From positions 16,357 to 80,356 of the forward strand of contig DASZWQ010000111.1 in assembly GCA_035546535.1 (NCBI GenBank): a DNA stretch of 64,000 nt, given 5' to 3'. This DNA comes from Pirellulales bacterium. Lineage in GTDB: Bacteria > Planctomycetota > Planctomycetia > Pirellulales > JACPPG01. The position numbers and the translations under genes are program-made. The notes under the pieces were generated by a model that saw nothing but the letters and a program-made list of their open reading frames with translations, did not search any database and was not told the DNA's origin. Shown here in pieces: positions 19,754 to 58,901 of the stretch; the stretch's first letter is position 1, and the number at the start of each line of letters is the position of its first letter.

Positions 19754-20114
19754 GCCAGTTTCCCTTCGTCTGGTCCGCGGAGCCCGGAGCAGGCCCCAAT
19801 CGTTCGGCAACCCGGGCCGGAAAACGGCCGTGATGGGAGGTTGGGGTTGCCTGCCCTATTCCAAGCCCAATTATCGAGTTACATAAACTAGTGTCAACCA
19901 GATCGTCGCTTGTCGCAAGGGTCTGGCGGGCGGAAAAATCCGTGCCGCGCCGGCTGACCGAGCGGCGGCCGTCATCGCTCGTGCTTTACCAGGGGAGTGC
20001 CGATTGTGCCGGCTCTGGCCGCGGCTCGACTTCTTGTGCCTAGCGGGCTATCGTGGACTGCCCGCCCGCTCCACTCCGAATCATTTCGGCCAGTCGCCGG
20101 AACTCATTGGCCCT

Positions 20115-35720: not shown

Positions 35721-37460
35721 TCATTTCTTTGCCGCAAGCGCCTCGGCTTCTTGGGGCGTCATCAGCCCGTCGTTATCCGCGTCGAGCTTTTGAAATTGTT
35801 CTCGGGTGCCGAGGAACTCGCGCCGTGAGAGGTCGCCATCGCGGTTACGATCCATGCGTTGGAACCATACCGGCCCTTTGCCGGAGAGTTGTTCCTGGTT
35901 GCCGTTACCGGAGGCGACGAAGGTCACGACGCCGTTTACGTTCCCGGAGGGGCCGCCCGGCGCCAGCACGATCTGGTAGCGGCGCGGAACGTCGTCGTGC
36001 TTGATCTTGCCGTCGGCATCGCGGTCCCAGGCCGACGCCGTGCGCGCAAGCTCTCGCAACTCGCGCAGCGATAAGTATGAGTTGCGGTTGCCGTCGAGAA
36101 TCTCGAACAGCGTGCTACCGCGATCCGTGAACCCGGCATTGACCCGCTTGGCCGAGATTTCGTTTTGCCGCCTGAGGTAGTCGACATATTCTTCGACGAA
36201 GATCTTGCCGTCGCGGTCCTTGTCGATCTTCGCAAAGTCGTTCCGCTGTGCTGTCCGTCGCAGCTCCTGCTTGTCGAGGTAATCGTTGTTATCTTGATCG
36301 AGGTTCTTGAACTGCTGCCGTACGCGCTTCTCAGTATTCTTCGGATCGGCAGCTCCCGCGCCGGAGAGCTCCAATTCGAACGAGATGCCGCGCACGAAGA
36401 TCGCCCCGCTCTTATCAAGGTCGACGCGCAATTGCCGGTTGGGATCGTTCAACTGATTGACGATTTGCAGGCGCCGGCCCTTAACTTCAGGATCGAGGTC
36501 GGCCGCCAGCTCGACGTCGGGCCGCTGCGCGATATACCAGGCCTGCAACTCCGCCTGGTCGAGCTTGCCGCTGGCATCCTTGTCGGCCGCGGCAAATTCC
36601 TCCTGAGCCAGTTGCAGTTCCTCGCGAGTCAGCAGCCGGTCTTTTTGCTCGCCCGTCGGCGCGCTGTCGTAGCGCGCTACGATCGCATCGCAAATCTCGG
36701 CCGGCGGCTGGTCGGGGACGGGCGCCAGTAATAACGTGCCCGGAACACCGCCAGGGGTCGGCGCTGCGAACACCTGGTTGCCGAACGGGTTGCCGTCGGC
36801 GCGCAGCTCGAACTCGGAATACGTCTCGTCTTCGTCGCGGTCGAAGCGTTGCAGGCGATCGAGGCCGGCCGTCATTTCCGTGGCGTCGAGCAACTGGTCA
36901 TTATCGTGATCGAGAATGGCAAACAGCGGATCATCTCCCGCCGCCGGCTGACGTTGTCCGTTGCGCCCCGTACCGAAACAGGATTGCGCGAGATGTTCAA
37001 CCAGCTCGTCGAACGAGATGGCGTCGTCCTGCGGATTCGTATCCAGGTCGAGAAACGTCAATATCTCGAATCGTGAATCGCCGCGGCGCGTGCGCCGCTC
37101 GTTGAAGGCGGTCCAGTCCGCGGTTTGAAACTCGGCATCGTCGATGCCGCCACTGGCATCGGCGTCCAACTCTTGAAATCGTTCCCACAGGTAGTCGCCC
37201 CAGGTCGACTGGTAGCCTTGCCCGCCCAGCCGCAAGTGCAAGCGGAGAAAGACCGGCCGGCCGGCATTCAACAGGACGAGATCTTGCAGATCACTATTGT
37301 CCGCGGCGATGGCGATTGCTTCGGCGGAAGATTCCGCGGGCTTAGCATCGTCGGCGCGCACACTCGCGGCGGGCACGGCACAGGCCGCGCCGCAAACGAG
37401 CAATCGCACCCAGTATCTAAACCGTTTCCGAGACAAAGTCGCTGTTCTCATACCAGGCAC
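35721..37460 (-). CDS. Secreted multi-EF-hand calcium-binding protein
   Basis: Signal peptide LLVCGAACAVPAASVRA. Repeated EF loops: DADASGGIDDAEF, DKDASGKLDQAEL, DQDNNDYLDKQEL, DKDRDGKIFVEE, DRDADGKIKHDD, DRNRDGDLSRREF, DADNDGLMTPQE. Confidence 0.8.
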   Translation of the reverse strand: MPGMRTATLSRKRFRYWVRLLVCGAACAVPAASVRADDAKPAESSAEAIAIAADNSDLQDLVLLNAGRPVFLRLHLRLGGQGYQSTWGDYLWERFQELDADASGGIDDAEFQTADWTAFNERRTRRGDSRFEILTFLDLDTNPQDDAISFDELVEHLAQSCFGTGRNGQRQPAAGDDPLFAILDHDNDQLLDATEMTAGLDRLQRFDRDEDETYSEFELRADGNPFGNQVFAAPTPGGVPGTLLLAPVPDQPPAEICDAIVARYDSAPTGEQKDRLLTREELQLAQEEFAAADKDASGKLDQAELQAWYIAQRPDVELAADLDPEVKGRRLQIVNQLNDPNRQLRVDLDKSGAIFVRGISFELELSGAGAADPKNTEKRVRQQFKNLDQDNNDYLDKQELRRTAQRNDFAKIDKDRDGKIFVEEYVDYLRRQNEISAKRVNAGFTDRGSTLFEILDGNRNSYLSLRELRELARTASAWDRDADGKIKHDDVPRRYQIVLAPGGPSGNVNGVVTFVASGNGNQEQLSGKGPVWFQRMDRNRDGDLSRREFLGTREQFQKLDADNDGLMTPQEAEALAAKK

Positions 37461-42527: not shown

Positions 42528-42943
42528 CCAGCCCTCCTGTTCCCGTCGCCATGCGTCGGCTCAAGAATATGAGGCGCGCGGCGTCGAACCGTCATTATTG
42601 AAATGTGCGAGGCGGTTTACCAGCAAATTCTTTTACAAATGAACTTCGGGCGCTATCCTGATTGCTATCTCACTAAGCGATAGGGCCGGCGCTTGCTAAG
42701 CTAGGAAACTTCAACAAGCGCTATGGCGACCGGTCGCCGGGAGAATGGCTCCATCCAGGGGGTGTTGCTCGCGGCTGACTGGGGTCAACAGGAGCCGCGT
42801 CTTATCTGCGCCGATAGCCTCGGTGAGGTATCGCGGCGACCTGGTGCTCGTCCGCATAAACGATGGCGCCCGGTTGGCGCGTTGCCGTGGCGATGTTGGC
42901 CGGTCGTCGATTATTGAAATCTGGCGGCGCTTCTGCCCTCGCC

Positions 42944-43100
42944 CTAGCAGCCTGTTGAAAAAAGCCCTCGTGGCTTTTTTCAACCTCGCCAAGTGCGAAG
43001 CAAAGCTTCGCACGGCTCGCAAAATAACGACTTACGTCGATTTTTTGCCATCGCATCCCGGCGATGTCGCAGCCCGTTGAGTTCTTCAACAGGCTGCTAG
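42944..43100. mobile_element. MITE-like / structured repeat element bounded by a 16-bp perfect inverted repeat
   Basis: ctagcagcctgttgaa (42944..42959) and ttcaacaggctgctag (43085..43100). Interior holds a 13-bp perfect hairpin gttgaaaaaagcc-ctcgt-ggcttttttcaac, a 9-bp hairpin gtgcgaagc-aaa-gcttcgcac, and catcgc-atcccg-gcgatg. No credible ORF. Confidence 0.4.
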
Positions 43101-43333
43101 CCTCCACAAGGCAATTCTCCCGGATATTGCGACGGTAATCCGCAGAGACAGTGACCTACTAATAGGGGCGGATCGAAGTCTGGCCGCTTCGCGGGCGTGC
43201 CTTGGCAACGTCGGATCCCGGTGCCGCGCTTGCAAGTAAGTGCTCCTCCCCGGCCAGGACATCCAAGACGAAAGCCGGGACCCGCGCCGTCCTTGACTGA
43301 CGATTAACGCACCTTCGCAAGTACGAGTCGAAC

Positions 43334-44176
43334 ATGATCCGGTCCGCTTTTCCTGTAGCTCCGAGAGCCCTTATGCCTGCCGAGGTTTCCGAATGCTCCG
43401 CAACCCCCTCGCTACGTGTGGACGTCGCGCATTTCGCACTTTCCCCAGCGCTGCGGAGTGGGGCGACGGGCGGGCGTTCGGCCTTTGAAATCAAGATGGT
43501 GCTCGATGCGGATGTGGCCCGTGATCTTGAGCGGTATCTTGCCACCCGACTGCACCTTGATCCCTATGCAGCCCAGGCACCGGATCGGGCCTATCCCGTG
43601 ACGACGCTGTACACCGATACTTCTCGGTTCGATGTGCTCCATCGTACGATGCCGCGCAAGCGGAGAAAGTTTCGGCTCCGACGCTATGGCCAGGAGTCGT
43701 GCGTGTATCTCGAACGTAAGACCAGGCACAAAAGCCGCGTGCGCAAGAAACGCACCGTGGTTGACGCCGAACAAGCCAGTGAACTGGCGGGAGATTCCAC
43801 AACACCGAATTGGGCAGGGCTCTGGTTTCACCAATCCATCCGTCGCCACGGATTAGGTCCCGTTTGCGCGGTTGCCTATCGGCGTAGCGCTCTCGTCGGC
43901 CCCTCCGAGTTTGGGCCGGTGCGCGCAACGTTCGACCGTGACTTGACGGCCTTCCGCGCCGAGCGGTGGTCGATCTCCGATCACGTTACCAACGCCGCTC
44001 GTTCGGTTTCCGCACAGACCATCTGTGAATTCAAGTTTTCCGGCGCGCTTCCTTGCTTGTTCAAGGATGTTCTCGAGCGATTCCGGCTCGTGCCCGGGCG
44101 TTTTTCGAAATACCGCGCCGCCGCGCACGTCCTGGGCCTCGTGTCAAAGACGGAAGGAGGCGAGCAACATGCCTGA
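43334..44176 (+). CDS. VTC-domain (polyphosphate polymerase / triphosphate-tunnel-like) protein
   Basis: AFEIKMVL..., YPVTTLYTDTSRFDV, RRKFRLRRYGQESCVYLERKTRHKSRVRKKR match the bacterial VTC (CYTH-like tunnel) pattern. The start may instead be the ATG at 43373. Confidence 0.8.
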   Translation: MIRSAFPVAPRALMPAEVSECSATPSLRVDVAHFALSPALRSGATGGRSAFEIKMVLDADVARDLERYLATRLHLDPYAAQAPDRAYPVTTLYTDTSRFDVLHRTMPRKRRKFRLRRYGQESCVYLERKTRHKSRVRKKRTVVDAEQASELAGDSTTPNWAGLWFHQSIRRHGLGPVCAVAYRRSALVGPSEFGPVRATFDRDLTAFRAERWSISDHVTNAARSVSAQTICEFKFSGALPCLFKDVLERFRLVPGRFSKYRAAAHVLGLVSKTEGGEQHA

Positions 44177-44843
44177 TTGGTTAACTCCCACAACCACCGA
44201 GGGAATCCCGGACGACGCGACCGGGCTCGCGCTGCGACTGGCCATGTCGTTCGCGTTCGGAACGTGCGTCGCGGCGATCTATCTCGCGTCCCACGGTCGC
44301 GAACGATCGCACCCCGCTCCGCTGGCCACGACCTTGGTATTGCTGTCGATGCTCATCGCCATGGTTTCGATCGTCATCGGAAATAGCGTGGCGAGAGCTT
44401 TTAGCCTGGTCGGCGCCCTGTCGATCGTTCGCTTCCGGACCGTCGTCGACGACACGCGCGACACGGCCTTTGTCATTTTCGCCGTGATCGTAGGCATGGC
44501 GGCGGGCGCGGGCTTGTACCTGGTCGCTCTCGTGGGCGTTCCCATGACCGGCTTGATCGCCATTGCCCTGAGCCACTGGACGGCAACCCAGGCCGAAGCC
44601 AAGCCGCGCAGGCACCATTTATCCATTCGATTGGCGCTGGGGCATGACCGCGCGATCGTCGAGCGGGTCATGTCGGAATACTTACAGTCGTTTGTGCTCA
44701 CCGAGAGCTCGACAGCGCGGCAAGGCGAAGCAATCGACTTCTGCTACGAAACGAAGCTGAGAGCCGAATCGGATATGGCACTGCTGGTAATTGTTCTGAA
44801 TCAAGTGGAAGGCGTGATGAACGTGGAAATGCGCCGCACGTAA
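44169..44843 (+). CDS. DUF4956 membrane protein
   Basis: ATG at 44169 overlaps the VTC stop by 8 nt. ARAFSLVGALSIVRFRTVVDDTRDTAFVIFAVIVGMAAGAG is the DUF4956 core. 3-4 TM helices. Confidence 0.8.
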   Translation: MPDWLTPTTTEGIPDDATGLALRLAMSFAFGTCVAAIYLASHGRERSHPAPLATTLVLLSMLIAMVSIVIGNSVARAFSLVGALSIVRFRTVVDDTRDTAFVIFAVIVGMAAGAGLYLVALVGVPMTGLIAIALSHWTATQAEAKPRRHHLSIRLALGHDRAIVERVMSEYLQSFVLTESSTARQGEAIDFCYETKLRAESDMALLVIVLNQVEGVMNVEMRRT

Positions 44844-44920
44844 GTTCGTCTTGGCCGCGATTGCGAAAACAGTCGCGCCGCATCGAAAAATGAATACGTC
44901 GCTAATCGAGAGGAGACGTC

Positions 44921-47146
44921 ATGCGAACGCACTTGAGGGAACCACGTTTGCTAAGAGTTCTCGCCACGACGCTCCTGGTGTCGCTGGTAGGAGTTGCCGG
45001 CGCTCAACCCGGGCCCGGTTTTGGCCCCGGCCCGGGGTTTGGACCGGGCGGCCCCGGTGGTCTGCCTCCGGGCTTCGGCCCGCCTCCGGGTTTCGGCCCG
45101 CCTAATCAGCTCGGCACCCTTCTTAACGCGGCCGAAGTGCAGCAAGAGCTACAGCTCACAAGCGCGCAGAAAAAGCAGCTCGAAAAGGTTCTGGCCGACG
45201 ACAGCAAGGAACTCCAGGCCGGCTTTCAAAGGTTCAACCCGACGGAAATGCGCGACATGGAACCTGCCGAGCGCGAGAAGCACTTCGAGCAAATGCAGGA
45301 ACGCATGACCAAGGCATCGCAAAATACGCGGGCCAAGATCAACAAACTACTGCAACCGGCACAGGTCGAGCGACTGGAGCAGTTGCTGCGCCAGCGCGAA
45401 GGCGCCGCGGCGCTCATGCGTCCCCTGGCTGCCAAAGAATTGGGACTGTCCGAAGAGCAGCAGCAGAAGCTCCAAGACTTGCAAGACGATCGGCCGCCTT
45501 TTCTGGTTTCGGAAGATGACCGTAAACAGCAGGAAACCGCGGCGCTGGCCGTGCTCACCTCGGACCAGCAAGCCACGTGGATAAAACTCAAAGGCGCCGA
45601 GTTCAAGTTTCCCGAGTCCGTGCTGCGGCCGCAGTTCCCTGGCGGACCAGGCGGTCCGGGCGGACCGATGCAGCAAGAGAAGCAATTGATCAAGCAGTTC
45701 GACAAGGATGGCAACGGCAAGCTGAACCGCAAGGAGCGCGAAGCCGCTCGTGAATGGCTGAAGAAGAATCCGGCCGGCCGTGGCCCGGGCATTCGACCTC
45801 CTCCAGGTGCGCCGCCGGGAGCTGACGCGGGCGCAGGAAGAAGCACCCGCCCCGAACCGGAAGCGGGTCGGCATATTTCCCCGAGGGACGTAGCCAACGT
45901 CACGTTCCCTCTGTATTCCCTCGAGTCTCCCTTGAGAACTTTGTTCCTCGATTTCGCCGACGCGGATTGGGAAGCGGAACTGGCCGACTTCTACAAGTCG
46001 GATGTGGAAGTGCCCGCCAAGCTCACGGTCGATGGGCGGACATATTCCGACGTCGGGGTCCATTTTCGTGGACTGTCGTCATACTTCGCGGTCCCGGCCG
46101 GTCGCAAGCGATCGCTGAACGTTTCGCTCGACTTCAGCGATTCCAAACAGCGGCTCGATGGCTACAAAACTTTGAATCTGCTGAACTGCCACGAAGACCC
46201 CTCGTGCATGCACACCGTGCTGTATTTCTACATCGCACAGCATTACATCCCCGCGCCCAAGGCGAACTTCGTCAACGTGGTGATCAATGGTGAAAACTGG
46301 GGCCTGTATGCGAACGTGCAACAGTTCGACAAGGTCTTCGTCGAGGAGAATTTTCCCGGCGCCCAAGGATCGCGCTGGAAAATCCCCGGCTCGCCCGGCG
46401 GACGAGGAGGGCTCGAGTACATGGGGGATGACGTGGCGGCGTACAAACGCATCTACCAGATCAAGTCCGCCGACAGGGACGAAGCATGGCAGGCGCTCAT
46501 TCGCCTGTGCCAGACGCTTTCCGAGGCGCCGCTTGAGAAGCTCGAAGCAGAGCTCGCTCCGCAACTCGACATCGACGAGGCGCTGTGGTTTCTGGCCCTG
46601 GAAAATGCTCTCATCAATTCCGACGGTTATTGGATTCGAGCCAGCGACTATTGCCTGTATCGCGATGGGGGCGGACGGTTCCATGTCCTGCCGCACGACG
46701 CGAACGAAACGTTCCAGCCCGGCATGGGGCCCGGTTTTGGCCGACGCGGCGCGAATGCCCGTCGTGGCGATCCCTTGGAACTGGATCCGCTCGTTGGATT
46801 GAACGACCGCTCCAAGCCGTTGCGTAGCCGGTTGCTCTCCGTTCCGAAATTGCAGCAGAAGTACTTGGAGCACGTCCGCGCCATCGCCGAGGATTTCCTC
46901 GATTGGGACGAGTTGGGGCCGATTGTGGATTCGATTGCGACTTCTATCCGTCCGTCCATCGCCGAAAGTACGCGGCAACTCTACTCGATGAAAGAGTTCG
47001 AGTACGCGGTCTCGGCCGAGGAGAATCCGCCGCCCGGCGAAGGTCGCCATTCCGCCGTCTCGTTGCGCGGCTTTGCGCAGAAGCGACACGATTATCTGCT
47101 GGGTTACCCGGCGATTTCGGCGTTGGGATCTCAAGATGCACGCTAG
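44921..47146 (+). CDS. Secreted CotH-family (atypical protein kinase fold) protein with long N-terminal extension
   Basis: Signal peptide LLRVLATTLLVSLVGVAGA. CotH core KTLNLLNCHEDPSCMHTVLYFYIAQHYIPAPKANFVNVVINGENWGLYANVQQFDKVF and catalytic-loop-like FHVLPHDANETF. The N-terminal 325 aa carry GPGF repeats, LTxxQ-like helices and an EF loop. Confidence 0.85.
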   Translation: MRTHLREPRLLRVLATTLLVSLVGVAGAQPGPGFGPGPGFGPGGPGGLPPGFGPPPGFGPPNQLGTLLNAAEVQQELQLTSAQKKQLEKVLADDSKELQAGFQRFNPTEMRDMEPAEREKHFEQMQERMTKASQNTRAKINKLLQPAQVERLEQLLRQREGAAALMRPLAAKELGLSEEQQQKLQDLQDDRPPFLVSEDDRKQQETAALAVLTSDQQATWIKLKGAEFKFPESVLRPQFPGGPGGPGGPMQQEKQLIKQFDKDGNGKLNRKEREAAREWLKKNPAGRGPGIRPPPGAPPGADAGAGRSTRPEPEAGRHISPRDVANVTFPLYSLESPLRTLFLDFADADWEAELADFYKSDVEVPAKLTVDGRTYSDVGVHFRGLSSYFAVPAGRKRSLNVSLDFSDSKQRLDGYKTLNLLNCHEDPSCMHTVLYFYIAQHYIPAPKANFVNVVINGENWGLYANVQQFDKVFVEENFPGAQGSRWKIPGSPGGRGGLEYMGDDVAAYKRIYQIKSADRDEAWQALIRLCQTLSEAPLEKLEAELAPQLDIDEALWFLALENALINSDGYWIRASDYCLYRDGGGRFHVLPHDANETFQPGMGPGFGRRGANARRGDPLELDPLVGLNDRSKPLRSRLLSVPKLQQKYLEHVRAIAEDFLDWDELGPIVDSIATSIRPSIAESTRQLYSMKEFEYAVSAEENPPPGEGRHSAVSLRGFAQKRHDYLLGYPAISALGSQDAR

Positions 47147-47184: not shown

Positions 47185-47808
47185 CTACAAATGAATGATC
47201 CCGCGCGCTAGGGCGATCGTCACGGCGTGCGTGCGGTCGGTGGCGTTGAGTTTCGCCAGGATGTTCTGCATGTGCATCTTCACGGTGCCGCTGGCCGTGC
47301 CCAGGCGGGAGGCGATTTCCTTGTTGGCCAGTCCTTGGGCCACCCAGGTCAGTACTTCCACCTCGCGCGGCGTGAGCGCCACCTGTGGGAAGTAGCGGCT
47401 CAAGCGTTCCGCGACCTCGGCCGGCAGCAGCCGCTCGCCCGAGTGGACGATGCGGATCGCGTTGAGCACGTCGGTGTGTACCATTTCCTTCAGCAGGTAG
47501 CCGCGTATTCCGGCCTCGAGCGCTCGGTAGATGTCCTGGTCGCCGTCGAAACTCGTCAGCGCGATGATCTTGGCCTCGGGAAATTCGGCGCGTATCTGGC
47601 GCGTGGCCTCGATACCGTCGACATCGGGCATGCGCAGATCCATGAGCGTCACGTCCGGATGGTGCTTGCGAAACAATTCCACGGCCATGCGGCCGTTCGA
47701 CGCTTCGCCGACTAGTTGGATGTCGGCCTCGTTGGCCAGAATCGACGCAATTCCCTTGCGCACGAGAGAGTGGTCGTCGACACTGAGCACGCGAATCGGT
47801 TCGTTCAT
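47185..47808 (-). CDS. Response regulator, NarL/FixJ family (REC + LuxR-type HTH)
   Basis: VLSVDDH...DVTLMDLRMPDVDG...ALTSF receiver motifs. C-terminal LTPREVEVLTWVAQGLANKEIASRLGTASGTVKMHMQNILAKL. Confidence 0.95.
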   Translation of the reverse strand: MNEPIRVLSVDDHSLVRKGIASILANEADIQLVGEASNGRMAVELFRKHHPDVTLMDLRMPDVDGIEATRQIRAEFPEAKIIALTSFDGDQDIYRALEAGIRGYLLKEMVHTDVLNAIRIVHSGERLLPAEVAERLSRYFPQVALTPREVEVLTWVAQGLANKEIASRLGTASGTVKMHMQNILAKLNATDRTHAVTIALARGIIHL

Positions 47809-47929
47809 GAGATACTATCAATCGCTCGCAAGCAAAAGAATTGCCGGTTAACGGTGCTCCCGAACTCGGTCCGCCGGCGCGGCCGCAACGACATAAACTC
47901 CGTGACCCGTTACACGCGTCAGGATCCAG

Positions 47930-50900
47930 TTATGACGTGATCTCCTTGCCTGGCGAACGCGTCCCTAATTCGGCGGCGCGCGGCATATCGGGCATGGGCA
48001 GCGTCACGCGAATGGCGGTGCCGCGACCCGGCTGCGAGTCGATGCGCAAATCGGCGCCGATTTGCGTGGCGCGCTCCTTCATGCCGATGATGCCGTAATG
48101 GCCCGCACGCACGCCAGGTGCCTCGACGGTGCCAAAGCCGGCGCCGTCGTCCTCGATCGCCAGCAGAATGTGCCGACCCGACCCATCGAGCGTCACGTCG
48201 ATGCTGCGAGCGCCCGAGTGCTTGATCGAATTCGTGATCGCCTCTTGCGTGATGCGAAGAAGATTATATTCGACGTCGACCGGCAATCGCCGCGGACAAT
48301 TGCGCATGTTGAGCCGCAGCCGGATATCGCCAGTTTCGGTCAGTTGCCGTGCCGCTTGAGCGATGGCGGCCGACAAGCCGGACTCGGCGCTGGGATCGTG
48401 TCGCAATCCGGCGACCGAACGCCTGGCGTCGCGCACGCAGTTCGCGGCGTCGCGAATGATTTCCTCGAGCGTGCCGCGCTCCTGAGACCGCGGCAGGCGG
48501 GCCGCCAGAGCTTGCATCTCCATGGTCACTCCGGAAAAACCCTGCATCAGCGTATCGTGCAGCTCGCGAGCAATGCGGCTGCGCTCGGCAACGACGGCCC
48601 GCATCTGATCCTTGATATTGCGGACCCGCAGGCGATAGGCTCCAAAGATGGTCAGCGCCACGGCAGCCGCACAGGAGGGGAGGAACCAAAATGTCTGATA
48701 AAAGTGGGGAAGGATCGTGAAGGAGACGGGTTGGCCGGTTTCCCACTTTGCTTCATCGAAGGTGCGCGCGGCGACAAGAAATTGATACTCGCCGGGCGAC
48801 AAATTCGTGTAAAACGCCTCGCGCCGCGTGCCGGCTTCCACCCAATCGCTGTCGAAACCATCGAGCTTATATCGAAACGCAGTGCGCACGGGCACCACCA
48901 GGCTCAGAGCCGTGTACTCGAACGAAACGTTGGAAGAACCGGGCGAGAGCCGACCAACGGTGCGGAGATCACGCGGTTGACCGTTGACCACCATCTCCTC
49001 AATGACCACGGGAGTGGGCGGCAAGGCGCGCACCAGGCGGCTGGGATCGACCATGATCAGACCGCGAGTGGTCGATTGCCAGACGCGGCCATCGGCAGAT
49101 TTCAGGATGCAGGGCTGCACCTCCTCTTGAACTTCGAACGCACGCGTGGCGTCGGAGAGCCGAAAAGGGGTCGTTTTGAGCTGAGCGCTGCGGCGCGGAT
49201 CGTAGTTCACAAGCTCGAGCCGCGACGTGAAGGAAAGGCCACTGCCAGACGCCATCCAGACGCGGTCGCCGTCGTCGATCAAGACTCCCGAGATCTCGTC
49301 GTCGAGCAGCCCTTCGCGCGTCGTGAAGTGTAATGTGCGGTCGTTGTTGACGAGCCACAGCCCATGGCCAAACGTACCCAGAAAGAGGCCTCCCTCAGGT
49401 CCTCGGCACATCGAGTCAATATCCAGAGCAGCGACCTCGGCATTGGGGAACGGTCGAATTTGGCGGGCAACGATCTGCAGCAACCCAGCGGCCGTCGCGA
49501 CCAGGATGGAACCGTCGTGTTGCGCCAACAATGAACGCACGGGAAGCCGCGCGAGCGTTTCGTCGTCGGGAAACACGAATCGCTCACCTTGCAGTTGGAC
49601 GACGCCTGACGCCGTTCCCGTCCACAGTTCGCCGGCGGGCGTCACGCACAGGCTCGTCACTTCGCGTGACGGCAGTCCCTCCCCCGGCCCGAAATGCTTG
49701 ACGACGCGTCCGTCCTGCACTCGGTCGATTCCCTGGTCCGTACCTACCCAGATTTGCCCGCTGCTGTCGTGAGCCAGGGCGCGGATCGAGTCGCTTGCCA
49801 GGCCGTCGCGCGTGGTGATGGTGTGAAAGTGGCGACCATCGAAATGTGCCAGTCCGGCACCGAGTGTTCCGACCCAAATGCCACCGGTCGCGTCGTTGCA
49901 CAGGGCCCCGATGTTATTGCTGGGAAGGCCTTCGCGGATGGTATAGGGAACCGTCCGGCGATCATTGAACTGATTCAGGCCATGCTTTGTGCCGACCCAC
50001 AGACTACCCTCGCGGTCCTCGTAGATCGCGTACACGTTGCTTTGCGAAAGCCCATCGGCAGCGTCGAAGCTGGCAAACTCGTCGCCGTAGCGACGGCTGA
50101 ACCCGCTGCGGGTACCGATCCACAGCGTGCCGTCGGCGCCTTGGAACAGACAATAGATCGATTCGTCGGGCAGTCCGTCTTTGGTGGTCAGATGCGTTTC
50201 GAGACCATCGTGCAAGTGAATCAACCCGCCCGTCGTTCCCAGCCAGATGGTGCCATCCTTGTCGGCGATGAGCGCCCGAACCGTTCCCTGCGCCGGAAGA
50301 GAATTCAACTGGTGTGAAGTCCACGTGGTGCCATCGAACGAACAGACCTGGTTGCCCGCGCCGCCGACCCAGATGGCGCCATCCTTGGCTTGCGAGACGG
50401 CGCGTACATCTTCGATGGGCATGCCCTGCGTCGCGCCAAAAACGGTCAACTTCTGACCCAGCCGCACGAGCCCCTTATCCGTGCCGGCCCAAACCGAGCC
50501 GTCGCGCATGGCCATGACGCAGTGCACGTCATCCGAGGGCATGCCACTTGCGCGCGTATAGCGCTGATCATTTCCTTCACCGCGATAGCGAATCAACCCG
50601 GCCCCATCCGTAGCGATCCACACATGGCGGGCAGGATCTTCGCAGAGATCGCGAATGCGCAGCTTTTCAGACGAGAGGTCCGCGCAGTTAGGAATCATCG
50701 TAAAGCGAATGCCGTCGAAGCGCACCAGACCTGCCGGTGTACCCAGCCACAGATAACCATCGTGGGTTTGCAGGATCGCATAGATCGTGGGCTGGGGCAG
50801 GCCCTGGGGCAATTGCCAGACTCGATGAAAGGCCTGCGACAGCGAGCGTTGCTGGTCGAGCGCTCGAGCCGGCCCGGCTGGAAGGAATATAAGGATTAGA

Positions 50901-50986
50901 GCAATACAGGCGGCCGGGATGGGATAACGCCGAAGCGGCCATGCCCCCTGGGCGCACATTTCGTCGCTGAACGCGGCGACATTCAT
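47930..50986 (-). CDS. Sensor histidine kinase with periplasmic two-component-regulator propeller repeats and Y_Y_Y domain (HisKA_3 type)
   Basis: ATG at 50986 (MNVAAF...; ORF extends to 51043). Many repeats of the type DGxLWxGTxxGLxxxDG. FRYKLDGFDSDWVEAGTRREAFYTNLSPGEYQF (Y_Y_Y). TM helix. ERSRIARELHDTLMQ (H-box), then an HATPase_c region (DDGAGF, GIIGMKERA). Confidence 0.9.
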   Translation of the reverse strand: MNVAAFSDEMCAQGAWPLRRYPIPAACIALILIFLPAGPARALDQQRSLSQAFHRVWQLPQGLPQPTIYAILQTHDGYLWLGTPAGLVRFDGIRFTMIPNCADLSSEKLRIRDLCEDPARHVWIATDGAGLIRYRGEGNDQRYTRASGMPSDDVHCVMAMRDGSVWAGTDKGLVRLGQKLTVFGATQGMPIEDVRAVSQAKDGAIWVGGAGNQVCSFDGTTWTSHQLNSLPAQGTVRALIADKDGTIWLGTTGGLIHLHDGLETHLTTKDGLPDESIYCLFQGADGTLWIGTRSGFSRRYGDEFASFDAADGLSQSNVYAIYEDREGSLWVGTKHGLNQFNDRRTVPYTIREGLPSNNIGALCNDATGGIWVGTLGAGLAHFDGRHFHTITTRDGLASDSIRALAHDSSGQIWVGTDQGIDRVQDGRVVKHFGPGEGLPSREVTSLCVTPAGELWTGTASGVVQLQGERFVFPDDETLARLPVRSLLAQHDGSILVATAAGLLQIVARQIRPFPNAEVAALDIDSMCRGPEGGLFLGTFGHGLWLVNNDRTLHFTTREGLLDDEISGVLIDDGDRVWMASGSGLSFTSRLELVNYDPRRSAQLKTTPFRLSDATRAFEVQEEVQPCILKSADGRVWQSTTRGLIMVDPSRLVRALPPTPVVIEEMVVNGQPRDLRTVGRLSPGSSNVSFEYTALSLVVPVRTAFRYKLDGFDSDWVEAGTRREAFYTNLSPGEYQFLVAARTFDEAKWETGQPVSFTILPHFYQTFWFLPSCAAAVALTIFGAYRLRVRNIKDQMRAVVAERSRIARELHDTLMQGFSGVTMEMQALAARLPRSQERGTLEEIIRDAANCVRDARRSVAGLRHDPSAESGLSAAIAQAARQLTETGDIRLRLNMRNCPRRLPVDVEYNLLRITQEAITNSIKHSGARSIDVTLDGSGRHILLAIEDDGAGFGTVEAPGVRAGHYGIIGMKERATQIGADLRIDSQPGRGTAIRVTLPMPDMPRAAELGTRSPGKEITS

Positions 50987-51346
50987 AGCGCTACGCTCCT
51001 GGCTCGCGCGAAAATGCAACCAATGGCCCGGGAAAACCGGCAAAAGTGGCGCAGGATTTGGACCCCGGAAAACACCACGGCCGTTCCCTACCCTTCACTA
51101 TAGCCGTGCCTGGCCCGGTGCGAGAAGCGAGCGCGAAATGTGCCCTTACGCACGGTATGCCGAAAAGCATAGTCATAATACTGCTGCCTTGCGATTGCCG
51201 CGGGGACAATTTACGTACATGATACTGAGGGTGGGGAATCCGTAGGGATGGGCGGCTGCGGCAGGGGCGGCCATGCGACGCGTTTCCGGGGACCGGCATT
51301 GGCCGGGATCCGGCGAACGTTTTGAAGATGCCCGCAGCGCAACAGG

Positions 51347-52657
51347 GTGGCCAGAATGATCTCGAAGGTCCTCGTCAAAGCGCCGGTGGAACGCTCCAAG
51401 ACGGCGAGCGAATTTCCGCCGGTTCAGCCGGGGCCGCCGCCGAAGAAAATCGGGCGCGGCTTGCTGAAGCTGGCGGTAGTTTCCGTGGCAGCCGCGGCCG
51501 CTTATTTTTTCGTTCCCTGGGGAACGATTTCAGTCACGTCGCTCACTTCACTCTGGAGCGGTGGCAAACCCATTGAGGCGCCACCGCCGCGCCCCATCCC
51601 TGTCGTTGCGGTGCCTGCGCACGTGGGCGACATGAATCTGAACCTCAACGGCCTGGGGAACGTGACGGCGTTGTATTCGGTGATCTTGAAGAGCCGCGTC
51701 GACGGCGAATTGATCAAAGTAGCGTTCACCGAAGGACAGGTGGTGAATAAAGGGGATCTGCTCGCCGAGATCGATCCCCGTCCCTACGAAGTCATGAAAC
51801 GGCAGTTACAAGGCCAGTTGCTCAAGGACGAGGCGGCGTTGAAGATCGCACAGCTGAATCTCGATCGGTACACGGCCCTATTGCCCAACAGGACCGTGAC
51901 GCAACAACAGGTCGACGAGCAGATTGCCCTGGTGAAACAGTGCGAAGGCGCGATCGAAGCCGACCAGGCTTCGATCAAGAACATCGACTTGCAATTGCAG
52001 TATTGCAAGATCGTCGCTCCCATCCCTGGCACGATCGGACTGCGGCTTGTCGACCCAGGAAACATGGTGAAGGCCAACGACCCGACCGGCATGGCCGTCA
52101 TTAATCAGTTGCAGCCGATCACGGTCGTCTTCACGATCCCGCAAGACGACATCGCCCGCATACAGCGGCAGATCAATGCCGGTGTGCAGTTGAAGGTCGA
52201 CGCCTACGATCGCGACTTCAAGAACAAGCTGGCGACCGGCGACCTGATGGCCTTGGACAACCAGGTGGACGTCACGACCGGCACCGTGCGTTTGAAAGCC
52301 AAGTTTTCCAATGAAGACCACATGCTGTTTCCCAATCAGTTCGTGAACGCGCGCCTGTTGGTGGACACGATTCACGACGCCGTGATCGTGCCGGCCCCTG
52401 CCGTGCAGCAAGGCCCCAAGGGAACGTTCGTGTACGTCGTAGGTAAGGATTCGCAGGTCGAGGTTCGCGATGTTACGGTGGGGGCCACGGAAGCAGATCA
52501 GACGGTGATTAAAAGCGGCCTGGCCGACCATGAGTTGGTCGTCGTCGACGGTGTCGATAAGCTGCGGCAGGGAACCAAGGTTGCCCTGCGCGAGAACAGT
52601 CGCTCTGGCGAAGGCGGCTCCGGCCCGGTAGCGCGTGCCGATAAACAAGGGACCTGA
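51347..52657 (+). CDS. mdtA: RND efflux periplasmic adaptor (membrane fusion protein), MdtA-like
   Basis: GTG at 51347 or ATG at 51356. Lipoyl/hairpin/beta-barrel pattern: [32 protein letters not shown], coiled-coil region, [13 protein letters not shown]. Stop overlaps the mdtB ATG (TGATG). Confidence 0.9.
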
Positions 52658-55600
52658 TGAACCCGTCTCGGCCATTCATCCTGCGGCCCGTCGCGACGGT
52701 GCTGTTCATGGCCGCGATTCTGCTCTCGGGCATCGTCGCCTATTATCAGCTCCCTGTTTCGGCCCTGCCGCAGGTCGACTACCCAACGATCCAGGTGGTC
52801 ACCTTTTACCCTGGCGCGAGCCCGGAGGTGATGGCCTCGAGCGTGACGAGCCCCTTGGAGCGTCAATTCGGTCAGGTTCCAGGTCTGAACCAGATGACAT
52901 CGAACAGCTCGGAAGGCTGCTCGGTCATCACGCTGCAATTCATTCTCGATTTGAACATCGACGTGGCCGAGCAGCAGGTTCAGGCCGCGATCAATGCCGC
53001 GGCGACGTTTCTGCCGCGCGATCTGCCGGTGCCGCCGATCTATAGCAAAACGAATCCGGCCGACGCCCCGATCCTGACCCTGGCACTGACCTCGGCCACC
53101 TTGCCGTTGCCGAAAGTGCAGGACTTTGCCGACACCCGGTTGGCGCAAAAGATCTCGCAACTCTCGGGCGTCGGCCTGGTGAGCATCAGCGGTGGACAGA
53201 AGCCGGCCGTGCGCGTGCAGGTCAATCCGACCGCGCTTTCCGCGCTAGGGCTGAGCATGGAGGACCTGCGTGCTGCCGTCACGGCGGCCAACGTCAACCA
53301 GGCCAAGGGGAGCTTCGATGGCAGCCGGCAAGCCTTCACGATCGGCGCCAACGATCAACTGTTGACCAGCGACCAGTATCGCAAGTTGATCGTCGCTTAC
53401 CGCAACGGCGCCCCGGTGCTGATGTCGGACGTGGCCGACGTGGTCGACGGCGTGGAAAACCTGCGGCAGGCGGCCTGGATGGACGACCTGCCGGCCGTGA
53501 TCCTGAACATTCGGCGTCAGCCGGGCGCGAACATCATCGACGTCGTCGAACGCGTCAAACAGTTGCTCGTGCAGTTGAAGGCCTCGCTGCCGGCCGCCGT
53601 CACCGTCACCGTACTCACGGACCGTACCACGACGATCCGCGCCAGTGTCGAAGACGTGCAGTTCGAACTCGTGCTGACGATCGGGCTGGTCGTGCTCGTG
53701 ATCTTCCTCTTCTTGCGCAGTTTCACCGCCACCATCATTCCCAGTATCGCGGTGCCACTGTCGCTAGTCGGCACGTTCGCCGTTATGTACATGCTGGGCT
53801 ACAGTCTCAATAACCTGACACTGATGGCGCTGACGATCTCGACCGGGTTCGTCGTGGACGACGCCATCGTGATGATCGAAAATATCTCCCGGTATATCGA
53901 ACAGGGCGAAAACGCCATGTCGGCAGCCCTCAAGGGAGCGGCCGAGATCGGCTTTACGATCGTATCGCTGACGATCTCCTTGATCGCGGTGCTGATTCCC
54001 CTGTTGTTCATGGGGGATATCGTCGGGCGCCTGTTCCGCGAATTCGCCGTCACGCTGAGCGTAACAATCCTCGTGTCGGCGCTCGTGTCCTTGACCCTGA
54101 CGCCGATGATGAGCGCTCGCATTCTGCGCCACCATCCGCAAGCGCACCAGGGTTTCTTTTACCGGACGAGCGAAACCTTCTTCGAGACCGTGATTCGCTG
54201 GTATGGGCACACGCTGACGTGGGTACTACGCTTCGAATACACCACGCTGCTGGTGGCCATCGCCACGCTCGTGGCCACCGTGTACTTGTACATCATCGTG
54301 CCCAAGGGATTTTTTCCGGTGCAGGATACGGGCGTGATCTTGGGCATTTCCGAGGCATCTAACAGCATCAGCTTTCCGGCCATGGCCGAGTTGCAGCAGA
54401 AGCTGGCCAAGGTAATTCTCGAGGATCCAGCCGTGGACAGCCTGTCGTCATTCATCGGCATCGACGGCACGAATACGACGCTCAGCAGCGGCCGGATCCA
54501 GATCAACCTCAAACCGCTCGAGGAGAGGCACCCCTCGTCGGCCAGCGACGTCATTCGCCGGTTGCAAAAGAAGCTCGAACCGATCGAAGGCATCACCCTC
54601 TACATGCAACCGATCCAGGATCTGACGGTCGAAACCCGCGTCAGCCGCACGCAGTTTCAGTACAGCCTGGAAGATCCGGACGCCAAGGAGCTGAGCGAAT
54701 GGGTACCGCAACTCGTTGCGCGCCTGCAGGCCTGCCCGCAATTGCGCGACGTTACGAGCGACCTGCAGGACGAAGGACGCCAGGTGCGCGTGGTGATCGA
54801 TCGCGATAGCGCTTCGCGCCTGGGTATCACGCCGCAAATGATCGACGACGTCCTGTACGACGCCTTCGGCCAACGGCAGATCTCGATGATGTTCACCCAG
54901 TTGAATCAGTACCGCGTGGTGCTCGAAGTGAAGCCGGAGTTCCGCGACAACCCCAAGGACATCGGCAATATCTACATCCATGCGCCGCTGGCGGGCAAAG
55001 TGCCGCTAAGCACCTTCACGCGCATCGAGGAAGTGACGGCGCCGCTGGTGGTGAATCACCAGGGGCAATTTCCGGTGTCGACGGTGTCGTTCAACTTGGC
55101 GCCGGGAGTCTCGCTGGGCGAAGCGGTCGACGCCGTCGATGCTGTGAAGCAAGAGCTCAACATGCCGGCCAGCATCCAAGCCACGTTCCAAGGCACGGCC
55201 AAGGCGTTTCAAGCGTCGCTGCGTAACGAACCGCTGTTGATCCTGGCGGCCCTGGTCACGGTATACATCGTGCTGGGCGTCCTCTACGAGAGCTACATCC
55301 ATCCGATCACGATCCTCTCGACGCTGCCGTCAGCGGGCGTGGGCGCGCTCTTGGCCCTGCTCTGGTACCGGATGGATTTGAACGTGATCGCGTTGATCGG
55401 CATCATTCTTTTGATCGGCATCGTCAAGAAAAACGCGATCATGATGATCGACTTTGCGCTAGAAGCCGAGCGCAACGAAGGCAAGGCGCCGCGCGAGGCC
55501 ATCTACGAAGCCTGCCTGCTGCGGTTCCGACCGATCATGATGACCACGATGGCGGCCCTGCTCGGCGCTTTGCCCTTGGCGCTGGGCGAAGGCGTGGGCT

Positions 55601-55788
55601 CCGAGCTGCGCCGCCCGCTCGGCGTCACGATCATCGGTGGACTGTTGGTCAGCCAGGTGCTGACGCTGTATACGACGCCGGTCATTTACCTGGCCTTCGA
55701 TCGGCTGGGGCGATATTTGCGGCGCCAACCGCGTCCGGCCGTGGCTGGCGGACTCCATTCCTCGCCTCATGCGGAGGACTGGACGTGA
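52657..55788 (+). CDS. mdtB: RND multidrug efflux permease, MdtB-like
   Basis: N-terminus [53 protein letters not shown] is near-collinear with my recollection of E. coli MdtB. Also [22 protein letters not shown] and 12-TM architecture. Confidence 0.95.
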
Positions 55789-58700: not shown

Positions 58701-58901
58701 CTAGGGACGGGCAACGGCGCCGAGTTGCGCCGACCGCTGGGGATTGCGATCGTCGGCGGTCTGATCTTCAGCCAGGTGCTCACGCTGTACACGACGCCGG
58801 TGGTATACCTGTATCTCGATCAGTTGCGAGCACTCGGCGCGCGGTTGCGCCGACGGAGGCCGGCCGCGGCGCCGGCGCTGGCGCCGCATTTCGAAGTCTG
58901 A
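55785..58901 (+). CDS. mdtC: RND multidrug efflux permease, MdtC-like
   Basis: GTG start overlaps the mdtB stop by 4 nt (GTGA). [53 protein letters not shown] matches my recollection of the MdtC N-terminus. It is a tandem paralogue of the preceding gene. Confidence 0.95.

Follow-up and report, generated by a model that had tools for sequence, protein, structure and literature searches.

The window analysed here (a 64,000-nucleotide stretch of a Pirellulales planctomycete genome) carries on its forward strand, at 43334/43373-47146, three genes in the order VTC, DUF4956 and CotH (Table 1). All three Pfam matches exceeded the gathering scores: PF09359 in VTC (E 2.7e-29, 102.8 bits against a cut-off of 23, aa 51-265 of the 280-aa ORF), PF16316 in DUF4956 (E 3e-11, 43.8 bits against 30.6) and PF08757 in CotH (E 6.5e-37, 128.2 bits against 23.8, aa 381-725). 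These matches bear out the domain assignments of the original prediction, and the ORF coordinates agree with the 8-nt VTC/DUF4956 overlap and the 77-nt gap between DUF4956 and CotH that it had described. The database copy of the VTC protein (P0121) begins at M14, i.e. at 43373, and has 267 aa. Gene order and spacing support the view that the three genes form a tight operon in this organism. We found the identical 8-nt overlap, ATGNNTGA, in 39 of 50 VTC-DUF4956 pairs (49 genome loci and the present window), and translational coupling of the two genes, as predicted from this junction, appears to be conserved phylum-wide.

Table 1. Features of the three-gene locus (window coordinates).
Feature	Position	Strand	Details or basis
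VTC-domain, Vtc4-like triphosphate-tunnel protein	43334..44176	+	longest ORF 280 aa, Pfam PF09359
8-nt overlap ATGCCTGA	44169..44176	+	DUF4956 start codon and VTC stop codon
DUF4956 membrane protein	44169..44843	+	224 aa, Pfam PF16316
Exported CotH-family kinase (predicted)	44921..47146	+	741 aa, Pfam PF08757
Predicted Sec signal peptide, aa 1-28, ...VAGA/QPG	44921..45004	+	sequence features, hydropathy
Helical region, five L[TSQ]xxQ motifs (LTXXQ / CpxP-Spy-like), aa about 70-225	45128..45595	+	motif count
Predicted EF-hand Ca-binding loop DKDGNGKLNRKE, aa 261-272	45701..45736	+	Pfam EF-hand_1, sub-threshold
CotH kinase domain, aa 381-725	46061..47095	+	alignment to 5jd9
Catalytic Asp D568 (NSDGY)	46622-46624	+	5jd9 alignment
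Metal-binding Asp D593 (LPHDANE)	46697-46699	+	5jd9 alignment

The same genes were found together in many other genomes. Among 80 planctomycete genome loci, a set of nearest relatives to the query that is not phylogenetically independent, 48 DUF4956 loci had enough flanking sequence to be scored. The adjacent triad was present at 25 of the 48 (21 in the order VTC-DUF4956-CotH and 4 as CotH-VTC-DUF4956) and an adjacent CotH gene at 39, which includes 14 DUF4956-CotH pairs with no adjacent VTC; VTC-DUF4956 alone occurred at 4 loci and DUF4956 with neither partner at 5. In metagenome loci anchored on VTC, DUF4956 lay directly downstream in 45 of 55. The same gene order is seen in Planococcus (Bacillota, annotated) and Nonomuraea (Actinomycetota), and the trio has also been reported from streptococci, Clostridia and Bifidobacteria (PMC7112168 / bioRxiv 10.1101/768473). 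Linkage of the three families, on which the original prediction hinged, is therefore far beyond chance. A chance juxtaposition of three unrelated genes has a negligible probability: most of the 48 + 55 loci show the adjacency, which extends to three or more phyla while the genes around it are not otherwise conserved; chance is ruled out by these two sets of counts together with the junction shared by 39 of 50 pairs. Lone VTC genes also occur and, together with the DUF4956-CotH pairs lacking an adjacent VTC, indicate that the polymerase is not obligatory. No other conserved neighbour was found in the 80 planctomycete loci except an ECF sigma/Ser-Thr kinase pair; the ECF sigma cluster lies upstream at about 14 of the 80 and directly precedes the Ser-Thr kinase where checked. 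A 505-aa protein, P0365, combines VTC and DUF4956 in one ORF; its C-terminus is garbled and the ORF may be a frameshift artefact.

The VTC polypeptide consists of the tunnel domain alone, with neither an SPX nor a DUF202 domain in the Pfam scan, and is presumed to be cytoplasmic since no signal peptide or TM segment was noted. Its AF2 model (pLDDT 85.6, pTM 0.83) is a closed beta-barrel tunnel whose best PDB match in Foldseek is Vtc4 (E 6.9e-13); the top 13 matches are all Vtc4, Vtc2 or Vtc3 structures (E 7e-13 to 4e-11, TM about 0.6-0.67). The family profile likewise matches the yeast Vtc4 structure 3g3q (E 2.7e-12). In the numbering of the 267-aa form, R101, R103, K116, Y169, R171, R184, E219, K221, S245 and K246 align with Vtc4 R264, R266, K281, Y359, R361, R373, E426, K428, S457 and K458, and all ten are invariant in 35 homologues; the basic tunnel residues on which the original prediction depended are thus intact. 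The triphosphate/Mn ligands of Vtc4 are K200, R264, R266, K281, Y359, R361, E426, S457 and K458, of which K458 separates active Vtc4 from the inactive Vtc2/3 that lack it (bioRxiv 10.1101/2023.01.27.525886). The counterpart of K200 is taken to be K41, located in an invariant [FY]E[ILVM]K[FY] motif of the first strand, an assignment made by motif and Pfam profile position only and not by residue-level alignment. Model and alignment together show a probable soluble protein that adopts the Vtc4 tunnel fold and has the alignable Vtc4 triphosphate/Mn residues, which may be a Vtc4-like polyphosphate polymerase with a predicted ATP-dependent synthesis of polyP. We consider it distinctly unlikely that the protein is instead, as most bacterial CYTH/TTM proteins are, a tripolyphosphatase, polyphosphatase or nucleotide-triphosphate tunnel enzyme in a module that degrades or senses polyP. 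Other TTM enzymes (putative adenylate cyclases, ygiF, thiamine triphosphatase and an archaeal TTM) do match the model at E 1e-8 to 1e-5, and an assay of a bacterial VTC-domain protein was not found in the literature searched, but Vtc4 structures match better by about four orders of magnitude and the Lys that inactive Vtc2/3 lack is invariant in this family.

PF16316 was matched by all 28 aligned DUF4956 members. The AF2 model of the present protein (pLDDT 78.8) has five helices (aa 17-42, 49-70, 74-92, 96-114 and 117-143), more than the 3-4 TM segments originally predicted, followed by a C-terminal ferredoxin/ACT-like domain (aa 148-223) whose fold matches S6/ACT/NikR. Charge distribution suggests that the N-terminus is out and the C-terminus in. 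The family has an invariant motif, ARAFSLVGALSIVRFRTVVDDTRDTAF, as well as invariant Arg (R23, R76, R88, R90, R97) and Asp residues in or beside the helices, and its RFRTVVDDTRDT loop is predicted to lie on the cytoplasmic side. The model shows DUF4956 to be a membrane protein of five helices that carries an ACT-like domain in the cytoplasm, an MgtC-like architecture. Proteins of the MgtC/SapB/YhiD type are also about 220 aa long, with approximately five N-terminal hydrophobic helices and a C-terminal ACT-like domain, and their weak sequence matches to DUF4956 are colinear. However, every one of these matches falls below family thresholds: NCBIfam PRK09977 (MgtC) gave E 5e-4 and 19.7 bits against a cut-off of 214, Pfam MgtC PF02308 gave E 0.029 in the present protein and was sub-threshold in 26 of the 28 members (best 4.8e-4), and DUF4956 is further set apart by an invariant RFRTVVDDTRDT motif and a gene neighbourhood of its own. 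To our knowledge, MgtC is not a transporter, and we know of no channel activity for it. A search of the DUF4956 members for DUF202, the Vtc membrane domain, returned noise-level matches only (best E 0.044). Compared with the yeast VTC complex (Vtc4/Vtc3/Vtc1), the planctomycete pair shares the tunnel fold, the aligned triphosphate/Mn residues including K458 and the pairing of a catalytic domain with a membrane component, whereas its catalytic domain is a separate polypeptide without SPX and its membrane partner is the MgtC-like DUF4956 (five helices plus ACT) rather than the three-helix DUF202/Vtc1 domain.

The N-terminus of CotH, MRTHLREPRLLRVLATTLLVSLVGVAGA followed by QPG, shows the n, h and c regions of a Sec signal peptide, as originally predicted, and those of its homologues are alike. 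Directly after it comes a Gly/Pro-rich linker (aa 29-61). In the helical region that bears the LTXXQ motifs, the Pfam LTXXQ match is sub-threshold (E 0.0076), and it is above threshold in the homologues P0232 and P0247. The EF-hand loop pattern was found in 107 of 120 homologues, and in the 24 of the first 25 that have one it is located at aa 197-303; calmodulin matches were weak. The full-length architecture is common to many Planctomycetota, at 45-50% identity across about 90% of the protein. The protein matches B. cereus CotH (PDB 5jd9) at E 1.9e-8, and in that alignment D568 and D593 fall on an Asp pair 23 residues apart, which is the spacing of D228 and D251, the residues essential in B. 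subtilis CotH (PMC7821199); the correspondence of B. subtilis to B. cereus numbering was itself inferred from this spacing. D568 is invariant (48/48 sequences) and D593 is present in 45 of 48. The HD motif FHVLPHDANETF had been described as catalytic-loop-like. Its Asp, D593, aligns instead with the metal-binding Asp (B. subtilis D251) at a DFG-like position and the catalytic Asp is D568 in NSDGY; both the catalytic and the metal-binding Asp are intact. All CotH partners examined, except the ambiguous metagenome ORF L115, have a signal peptide, a lipobox or a TM anchor, and none of the VTC proteins does; CotH partners were exported in every phylum examined, and in a diderm host the protein is expected in the periplasm. 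By its sequence features, CotH is shown to be a Sec-exported member of the kinase family that has both catalytic Asp residues and, N-terminal to the kinase domain, LTXXQ helices and a single EF-hand loop; kinase activity is predicted.

The Bacillus spore-coat Ser/Thr kinase CotH (PDB 5JD9) shares with this protein the Pfam CotH domain and the catalytic and metal-binding Asp. Unlike it, the planctomycete protein is exported via a signal peptide, has an extra domain region of ~330 aa, carries D instead of N (D576) immediately after the catalytic loop and is not known to have CotB/CotG-type substrates; we know of no sporulation in the Planctomycetota. A non-catalytic role as a surface or adhesion protein similar to fungal CotH invasins, the kinase fold being vestigial, would find a parallel in Mucorales, where CotH proteins are surface ligands, and in three "type-2" CotH partners of DUF4956 in which Gly replaces D593. 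Nevertheless, with D568 invariant and D593 kept in the present subfamily and in the B. cereus, Nonomuraea and Planococcus proteins, such a role appears very unlikely.

In Gram-positive pel operons, cotH, a polyphosphate polymerase gene and DUF4956 have been described as a conserved group of accessory genes (PMC7112168 / bioRxiv 10.1101/768473). As in that group, which also includes DUF4832 (Whitfield et al. 2020, PMC7112168), the three planctomycete genes are contiguous and co-oriented, with a secreted CotH, a cytoplasmic VTC-like protein and a membrane protein composed of TM helices and ACT. The planctomycete locus differs in its diderm host, in the N-terminal LTXXQ and EF-hand extension of CotH in place of a C-terminal FN3 domain, and in the ECF sigma/Ser-Thr kinase pair upstream of some loci. 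No pel genes (pelDEADAFG) or DUF4832 were found among the window ORFs of at least 300 aa and one sigma-factor ORF, and no pel or DUF4832 cluster recurred in the 80 planctomycete loci. The trio is a Gram-negative, free-standing form of the module found at pel loci of Gram-positive bacteria; the pel accessory genes were known already, and we regard the trio standing alone in a planctomycete as new. In S. intermedius, where the counterparts are SIR_1594/1593/1592, deletion of DUF4956 or CotH alters Pel level and aggregation, whereas deletion of VTC gave no phenotype; the authors proposed that polyP stays cytoplasmic and reported the synteny at Pel loci only (PMC12345266). The original view that such a module has no experimentally defined function holds for its biochemistry, but not for the trio as such, which had been published at pel operons and whose genes had been deleted in S. 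intermedius.

The reading to which we give most attention, with a probability of roughly 40%, is that polyP made by VTC is passed or signalled across the membrane by DUF4956 and used by periplasmic CotH. Docked on DUF4956 on the cytoplasmic side of the inner membrane, VTC would polymerise polyphosphate from ATP; DUF4956 would pass the chain, or a signal about the chain, across the membrane, much as synthesis is coupled to translocation in the yeast VTC complex; and the Ca-binding CotH would use or process the chain, such that envelope or matrix proteins or glycans are phosphorylated. DUF4956 and CotH would be the core of the module, frequently joined by VTC as a dedicated supplier. Export of CotH partners in every phylum examined and the conserved VTC-DUF4956 translational coupling favour export of polyP, which is plausible as a mechanism for supplying an extracytoplasmic kinase. 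It is weakened by the DUF4956-CotH pairs without an adjacent VTC and by the lack of a phenotype of the Streptococcus VTC deletion, and disfavoured by the absence of significant similarity to the Vtc membrane domain and by the resemblance of DUF4956 to MgtC, which is cited for regulatory roles such as ATP-synthase inhibition and PhoR targeting (PMC12345266).

A regulatory module with no trans-membrane transfer is a somewhat unlikely alternative in our estimate. MgtC-like DUF4956 would sense a cytoplasmic ligand through its ACT-like domain, VTC would make or bind cytoplasmic polyP or triphosphate as a signal, and CotH would act independently outside on available ATP, the three being co-transcribed only because all tune envelope or exopolysaccharide behaviour. 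The MgtC-like architecture with its sub-threshold matches, the cytoplasmic location of polyP proposed for S. intermedius, the opposite shifts in Pel level on deletion of DUF4956 and of CotH with none on deletion of VTC (PMC12345266), and the pairs lacking VTC are all consistent with it. However, this alternative leaves unexplained both the phylum-wide coupling of a cytoplasmic tunnel enzyme to a membrane protein and the near-constant export of the third partner, it places a kinase in the periplasm without an obvious ATP supply, and homology to MgtC is unproven (hhalign of DUF4956 to E. coli YhiD gave a probability of 1.3% and E 0.042).

In its strongest form, the transfer of polyP from VTC through DUF4956 to CotH would amount to a third, VTC-type bacterial polyP route with DUF4956-coupled export, in which secreted CotH kinases take the polymer as their phosphodonor or substrate; we regard this extension as unlikely. 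If true, it would constitute a system dedicated to the phosphorylation of extracytoplasmic proteins or glycans, in a setting where the supply of ATP is not obvious, and possibly a relative, in bacteria, of the synthase-translocase principle of eukaryotic VTC.

The VTC (PF09359), DUF4956 (PF16316) and CotH (PF08757) genes of the module are co-oriented and closely packed. The spacing in the original prediction was reproduced in our ORF listing: the VTC stop and the DUF4956 start share 8 nt, ATGCCTGA, and 77 nt separate the DUF4956 and CotH genes. The three domain assignments were likewise backed by Pfam matches above gathering scores (E-values of 2.7e-29, 3e-11 and 6.5e-37 for VTC, DUF4956 and CotH, respectively). 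Identical or nearly identical proteins in the public collection came from Pirellulales metagenome-assembled genomes, where the VTC gene had been called from M14. Since the N-terminus of this protein is poorly conserved and of low confidence in the structural model, both starts are possible; VTC residues are numbered here in the 267-aa form. The approximately 800 bp 5' of the operon contained no convincing gene, and a perfect hairpin in this stretch looks like a bidirectional terminator. An Rfam search of the window, the upstream stretch included, gave no match, and a promoter and terminator scan yielded scores no better than those of shuffled sequences.

Coordinates of the module, of other features in the window and of selected loci (L handles) from the genome, plasmid and metagenome scans
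Feature	Location	Strand	Remarks
VTC ORF	43334-44176	+	280 aa; alternative start M14 at 43373 gives 267 aa
DUF4956 ORF	44169-44843	+	224 aa from ATG; nested in longer GTG ORF 44025-44843
CotH ORF	44921-47146	+	741 aa
Stretch 5' of operon	42528-43333		
19-nt inverted repeat	42944-42962 / 43082-43100		119 nt separating arms; upstream of operon
Perfect 13-bp hairpin	42954-42984		GTTGAAAAAAGCC/GGCTTTTTTCAAC; upstream of operon
Response regulator and histidine kinase	47185-51043	-	LuxR-type; 1037-aa propeller/Y_Y_Y kinase
RND efflux operon	51347-58901	+	membrane-fusion protein, two tandem AcrB-type pumps
Type IV pilus/type II secretion-like cluster	9-1175; 9472-13680; 17402-19810	+; -; -	
Large ORFs by this cluster	14053-15840; 15917-17383; 20004-22910		
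AhpC/TSA-redoxin protein	29920-32052	+	C-terminal EF-hand
EF-hand protein	35721-37460	-	579 aa; several strong EF-hands
ECF sigma/Ser-Thr kinase pairs	L015:5969-8946; L010:5927-8889; L064:6135-8905		examples; 14 loci in all
Type-2 CotH loci	L037:10001-12511; L075:10001-12414		also L041, L047, L061, L071, L074, L077 and others
VTC-DUF4956-Cthe_2159	L084:6219-9637		Paenibacillus cellulosilyticus
DUF4956-TolC family	L081:5724-8964		Hymenobacter volaticus plasmid

The co-occurrence that the original prediction required was borne out. Both genome-anchored scans covered the closest relatives only. Among the best 80 of 489 relatives in the DUF4956-anchored scan (one per species, nearly all Planctomycetota), 48 loci had enough flank on both sides, and in these DUF4956 had CotH as a neighbor in 39 and VTC in 29. 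The order VTC-DUF4956-CotH was found in 21 of the 48 and CotH-VTC-DUF4956 in 4, while 14 had DUF4956-CotH with no adjacent VTC gene, 4 had VTC-DUF4956 and 5 had DUF4956 alone. CotH genes were located with an HMM of the catalytic domain only; an HMM that included the low-complexity N-terminus falsely matched Ser/Thr kinases and was dropped. On metagenome contigs anchored on VTC (with a 12-sequence alignment, a 35-sequence one being too divergent), DUF4956 lay directly 3' in 45 of 55 loci, and the complete triad occurred in 11 of the 16 loci with room for it. The 8-nt overlap, ATGNNTGA, was identical to that of the window in 39 of 50 VTC-DUF4956 pairs. Such recurrent adjacency excluded a chance juxtaposition of the three genes, and because the order of the surrounding genes is otherwise not kept, it argues for selection on linkage and not simple inheritance. 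The cultured Planctomicrobium piriforme (GCA_900113665.1) has a complete operon.

All-against-all clustering of the flanking ORFs of the 80 loci revealed no other conserved neighbor except a pair formed by an ECF sigma factor and a Ser/Thr kinase. The sigma-factor cluster was present in 14 of the 80 planctomycete loci, directly 5' of a Ser/Thr protein kinase of ~780 aa where checked, and the pair may be a regulator of the module; none flanks the window operon. The LuxR-type regulator and histidine kinase genes of the window are convergent with CotH (38 nt between the facing stops) and were left out of the module, as they were not conserved neighbors in the 80 loci; nor were the RND efflux genes. 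Elsewhere in the window, the pilus/secretion-like cluster includes a T2SS-F protein, an unusually long secretin (1402 aa) and an 802-aa PilM-domain protein, and the large ORFs beside it had no Pfam match.

Evidence from other phyla consisted of four matches in the plasmid collection and the literature. A plasmid of Planococcus maritimus is annotated with a polyphosphate-polymerase-domain protein, DUF4956, CotH kinase, a hypothetical protein, a HEAT protein and a glycosyltransferase, in this order, and Nonomuraea showed the order VTC-DUF4956-CotH. In Paenibacillus cellulosilyticus, VTC-DUF4956 is followed by a carbohydrate-binding beta-helix protein (Cthe_2159) that replaces CotH. In Hymenobacter volaticus, DUF4956 is preceded by a gene whose 359-aa product has no Pfam match and followed by a TolC-family outer-membrane gene. 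As exceptions to the usual order, one locus had VTC directly followed by CotH. Lone VTC genes, with neither DUF4956 nor CotH, were found in Caulifigura coniformis (L152) and at three other loci (L125, L127 and L132), and a U32 peptidase gene adjoins three of them. A second arrangement was also observed, in which DUF4956 precedes a shorter "type-2" CotH of ~570 aa and VTC is not adjacent. In type-2 proteins a lipoprotein-type signal is common, as is PHGMDQ instead of PHDANE, and the genes upstream of these loci are unrelated (TPR, SAICAR synthase, RNase III).

This set of three genes has been published before. A cotH gene, a polyphosphate polymerase gene, DUF4956 and DUF4832 form a conserved accessory group that directly adjoins pelDEADAFG in streptococci, clostridia and bifidobacteria (Whitfield et al., PMC7112168), and the C. 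perfringens NELoc-2 locus contains the same gene families, with sigma and anti-sigma genes adjoining VTC and CotH. In S. intermedius, deletion of DUF4956 raised Pel and lowered aggregation, deletion of CotH lowered both, and deletion of VTC had no phenotype (PMC12345266). The authors of that study state that they found this synteny at Pel loci only (PMC12345266, mBio 2025, discussion); planctomycete loci such as that of the window, L001-L080 and L153 are counter-examples. No Pel-type or DUF4832 gene was detected among the window ORFs of at least 300 aa and one sigma-factor ORF, and none recurred in the 80 planctomycete loci. The module is thus not Pel-specific, and any model of it must therefore work without Pel polysaccharide. 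The window operon is a Pel-independent planctomycete version of a described module.

A single-sequence phmmer search with the VTC protein found no match in PDB; a profile of 35 homologs matched the yeast Vtc4 catalytic domain (3g3q, E-value 2.7e-12). Triphosphate and Mn2+ ligands of Vtc4 are K200, R264, R266, K281, Y359, R361, S457, K458 and E426, and of these only K458 differs in the inactive Vtc2 and Vtc3, which have Ile or Leu in its place (cryo-EM VTC complex, bioRxiv 10.1101/2023.01.27.525886). In the HMMER alignment, residues R101, R103, K116, Y169, R171, R184, E219, K221, S245 and K246 corresponded to Vtc4 R264, R266, K281, Y359, R361, R373, E426, K428, S457 and K458, respectively. All ten were invariant in the 35-sequence alignment, so the aligned Vtc4 residues, among them the basic tunnel residues on which the original prediction hinged, are all present. 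An invariant [FY]E[ILVM]K[FY] motif (E39 and K41) lies on the first strand; we take K41 as the probable K200 position from its place in the Pfam profile and the tunnel-enzyme signature. The AlphaFold2 model was confident (pLDDT 85.6, pTM 0.83), and its 13 best PDB matches were all Vtc4, Vtc2 or Vtc3 (E-values ~1e-12), other tunnel enzymes scoring 1e-8 or worse. Alignment and model together show a predicted enzyme with the Vtc4 fold and those Vtc4 active-site residues that aligned. That it acts as a hydrolase we consider improbable. Our literature search found no study in which the biochemistry of VTC or DUF4956 proteins from bacteria was tested.

DUF4956 belongs to a family of 5,845 cluster representatives (E-value ≤1e-3, 50% identity clusters). 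Its model (pLDDT 78.8) has five helices (17-42, 49-70, 74-92, 96-114 and 117-143) followed by a beta-alpha-beta-beta-alpha-beta domain (aa 148-223), which resembled ferredoxin-like ACT/S6/NikR domains in structure comparison; the helical part had no solved relative there. The charge distribution, with an acidic N-terminus, a GRERSH loop, RFRTVVDDTRDT joining helices 3 and 4, and KPRRHH past helix 5, fits a topology with the N-terminus outside and the ACT-like domain inside. The stretch ARAFSLVGALSIVRFRTVVDDTRDTAF is essentially invariant, and conserved Arg residues in and beside the helices are compatible with polyanion handling. This five-helix and ACT-like architecture is like that of MgtC, a point also made for S. 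intermedius (PMC12345266, mBio 2025). We observed a weak colinear match to NCBIfam PRK09977 (E-value 5e-4) and sub-threshold Pfam MgtC matches in 26 of 28 members; an hhalign comparison of the profile and E. coli YhiD gave no significant match. Similarity to DUF202, the membrane domain of yeast Vtc proteins, did not rise above noise (best E-value 0.044; matches in 5 of 28 members). The MgtC-like nature of DUF4956 allows a purely regulatory role for the module, which we regard as rather unlikely.

The CotH protein begins with a typical signal peptide and a Gly/Pro-rich linker. Between these and the CotH domain (aa 381-725) lie five L[TSQ]xxQ motifs and, after them, a canonical EF-hand loop, DKDGNGKLNRKE. 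LTXXQ and EF-hand Pfam matches were sub-threshold in this protein and above threshold in homologs. The EF-hand loop pattern occurred in 107 of 120 homologs, and the entire architecture is kept across Planctomycetota (45-50% identity over ~90% of the length). Exact-sequence look-ups of Lacipirellula and Anatilimnocola CotH proteins gave no match. In an alignment with B. cereus CotH (5jd9, E-value 1.9e-8), D568 (NSDGY) paired with the Asp of NFDGF and D593 (LPHDANE) with the first Asp of PWDYD. The B. cereus pair is 23 residues apart, equal to the spacing of D228 and D251, both essential in B. subtilis CotH (PMC7821199). The HD motif that the original prediction had called catalytic-loop-like is accordingly placed at the metal-binding site, with the catalytic Asp 25 residues upstream. 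D568 was present in 48 of 48 diverse sequences and D593 in 45. A non-catalytic CotH appears doubtful, as both the putative catalytic and metal-binding Asp residues are intact. Two other window proteins, an EF-hand protein and an AhpC/TSA-redoxin, also have EF-hands; this suggests a possible calcium theme among neighboring proteins including CotH, at least one of them exported.

These features show a predicted membrane protein, DUF4956, translated from a start overlapping the VTC stop, and a third partner, CotH, predicted to be exported; all but one of the CotH partners examined had a signal peptide, a lipobox or an anchor in the membrane. The VTC protein would work at the membrane, on DUF4956, and an ATP-derived product would cross the membrane, or signal across it, to CotH. 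Synthesis coupled to translocation has a precedent in the yeast VTC complex (bioRxiv 10.1101/2023.01.27.525886). We hold this polyphosphate or phosphodonor model tentatively, at a probability of about 0.4. The linkage noted in the original prediction was confirmed, and its interpretation was partly supported. P0365, a 505-aa metagenome protein with VTC at aa 50-263 and DUF4956 beginning at aa 275 of a single ORF, would support a physical complex if it is a natural fusion; its garbled C-terminus suggests a possible frameshift artefact. DUF4956-CotH looks like the core pair because of the 14 loci without an adjacent VTC gene, the lone VTC genes and the silent Streptococcus VTC deletion, and the same three facts speak against the polymerase being obligatory.

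Bacterial polyphosphate is attributed to PPK1 and PPK2, and to our knowledge VTC-type synthesis has been treated as eukaryotic. The module raises the question of whether bacteria carry out VTC-type polyphosphate synthesis and export serving an extracytoplasmic kinase, which this locus and the cultured P. piriforme make directly testable. If the proposed mechanism is true, it would represent a new polyphosphate pathway for bacteria, built from a Vtc4-like enzyme, a translationally coupled membrane protein and an exported kinase; it would account for a kinase working in the periplasm or extracellularly, and would provide a biochemical role for two large uncharacterized families, one of them DUF4956.
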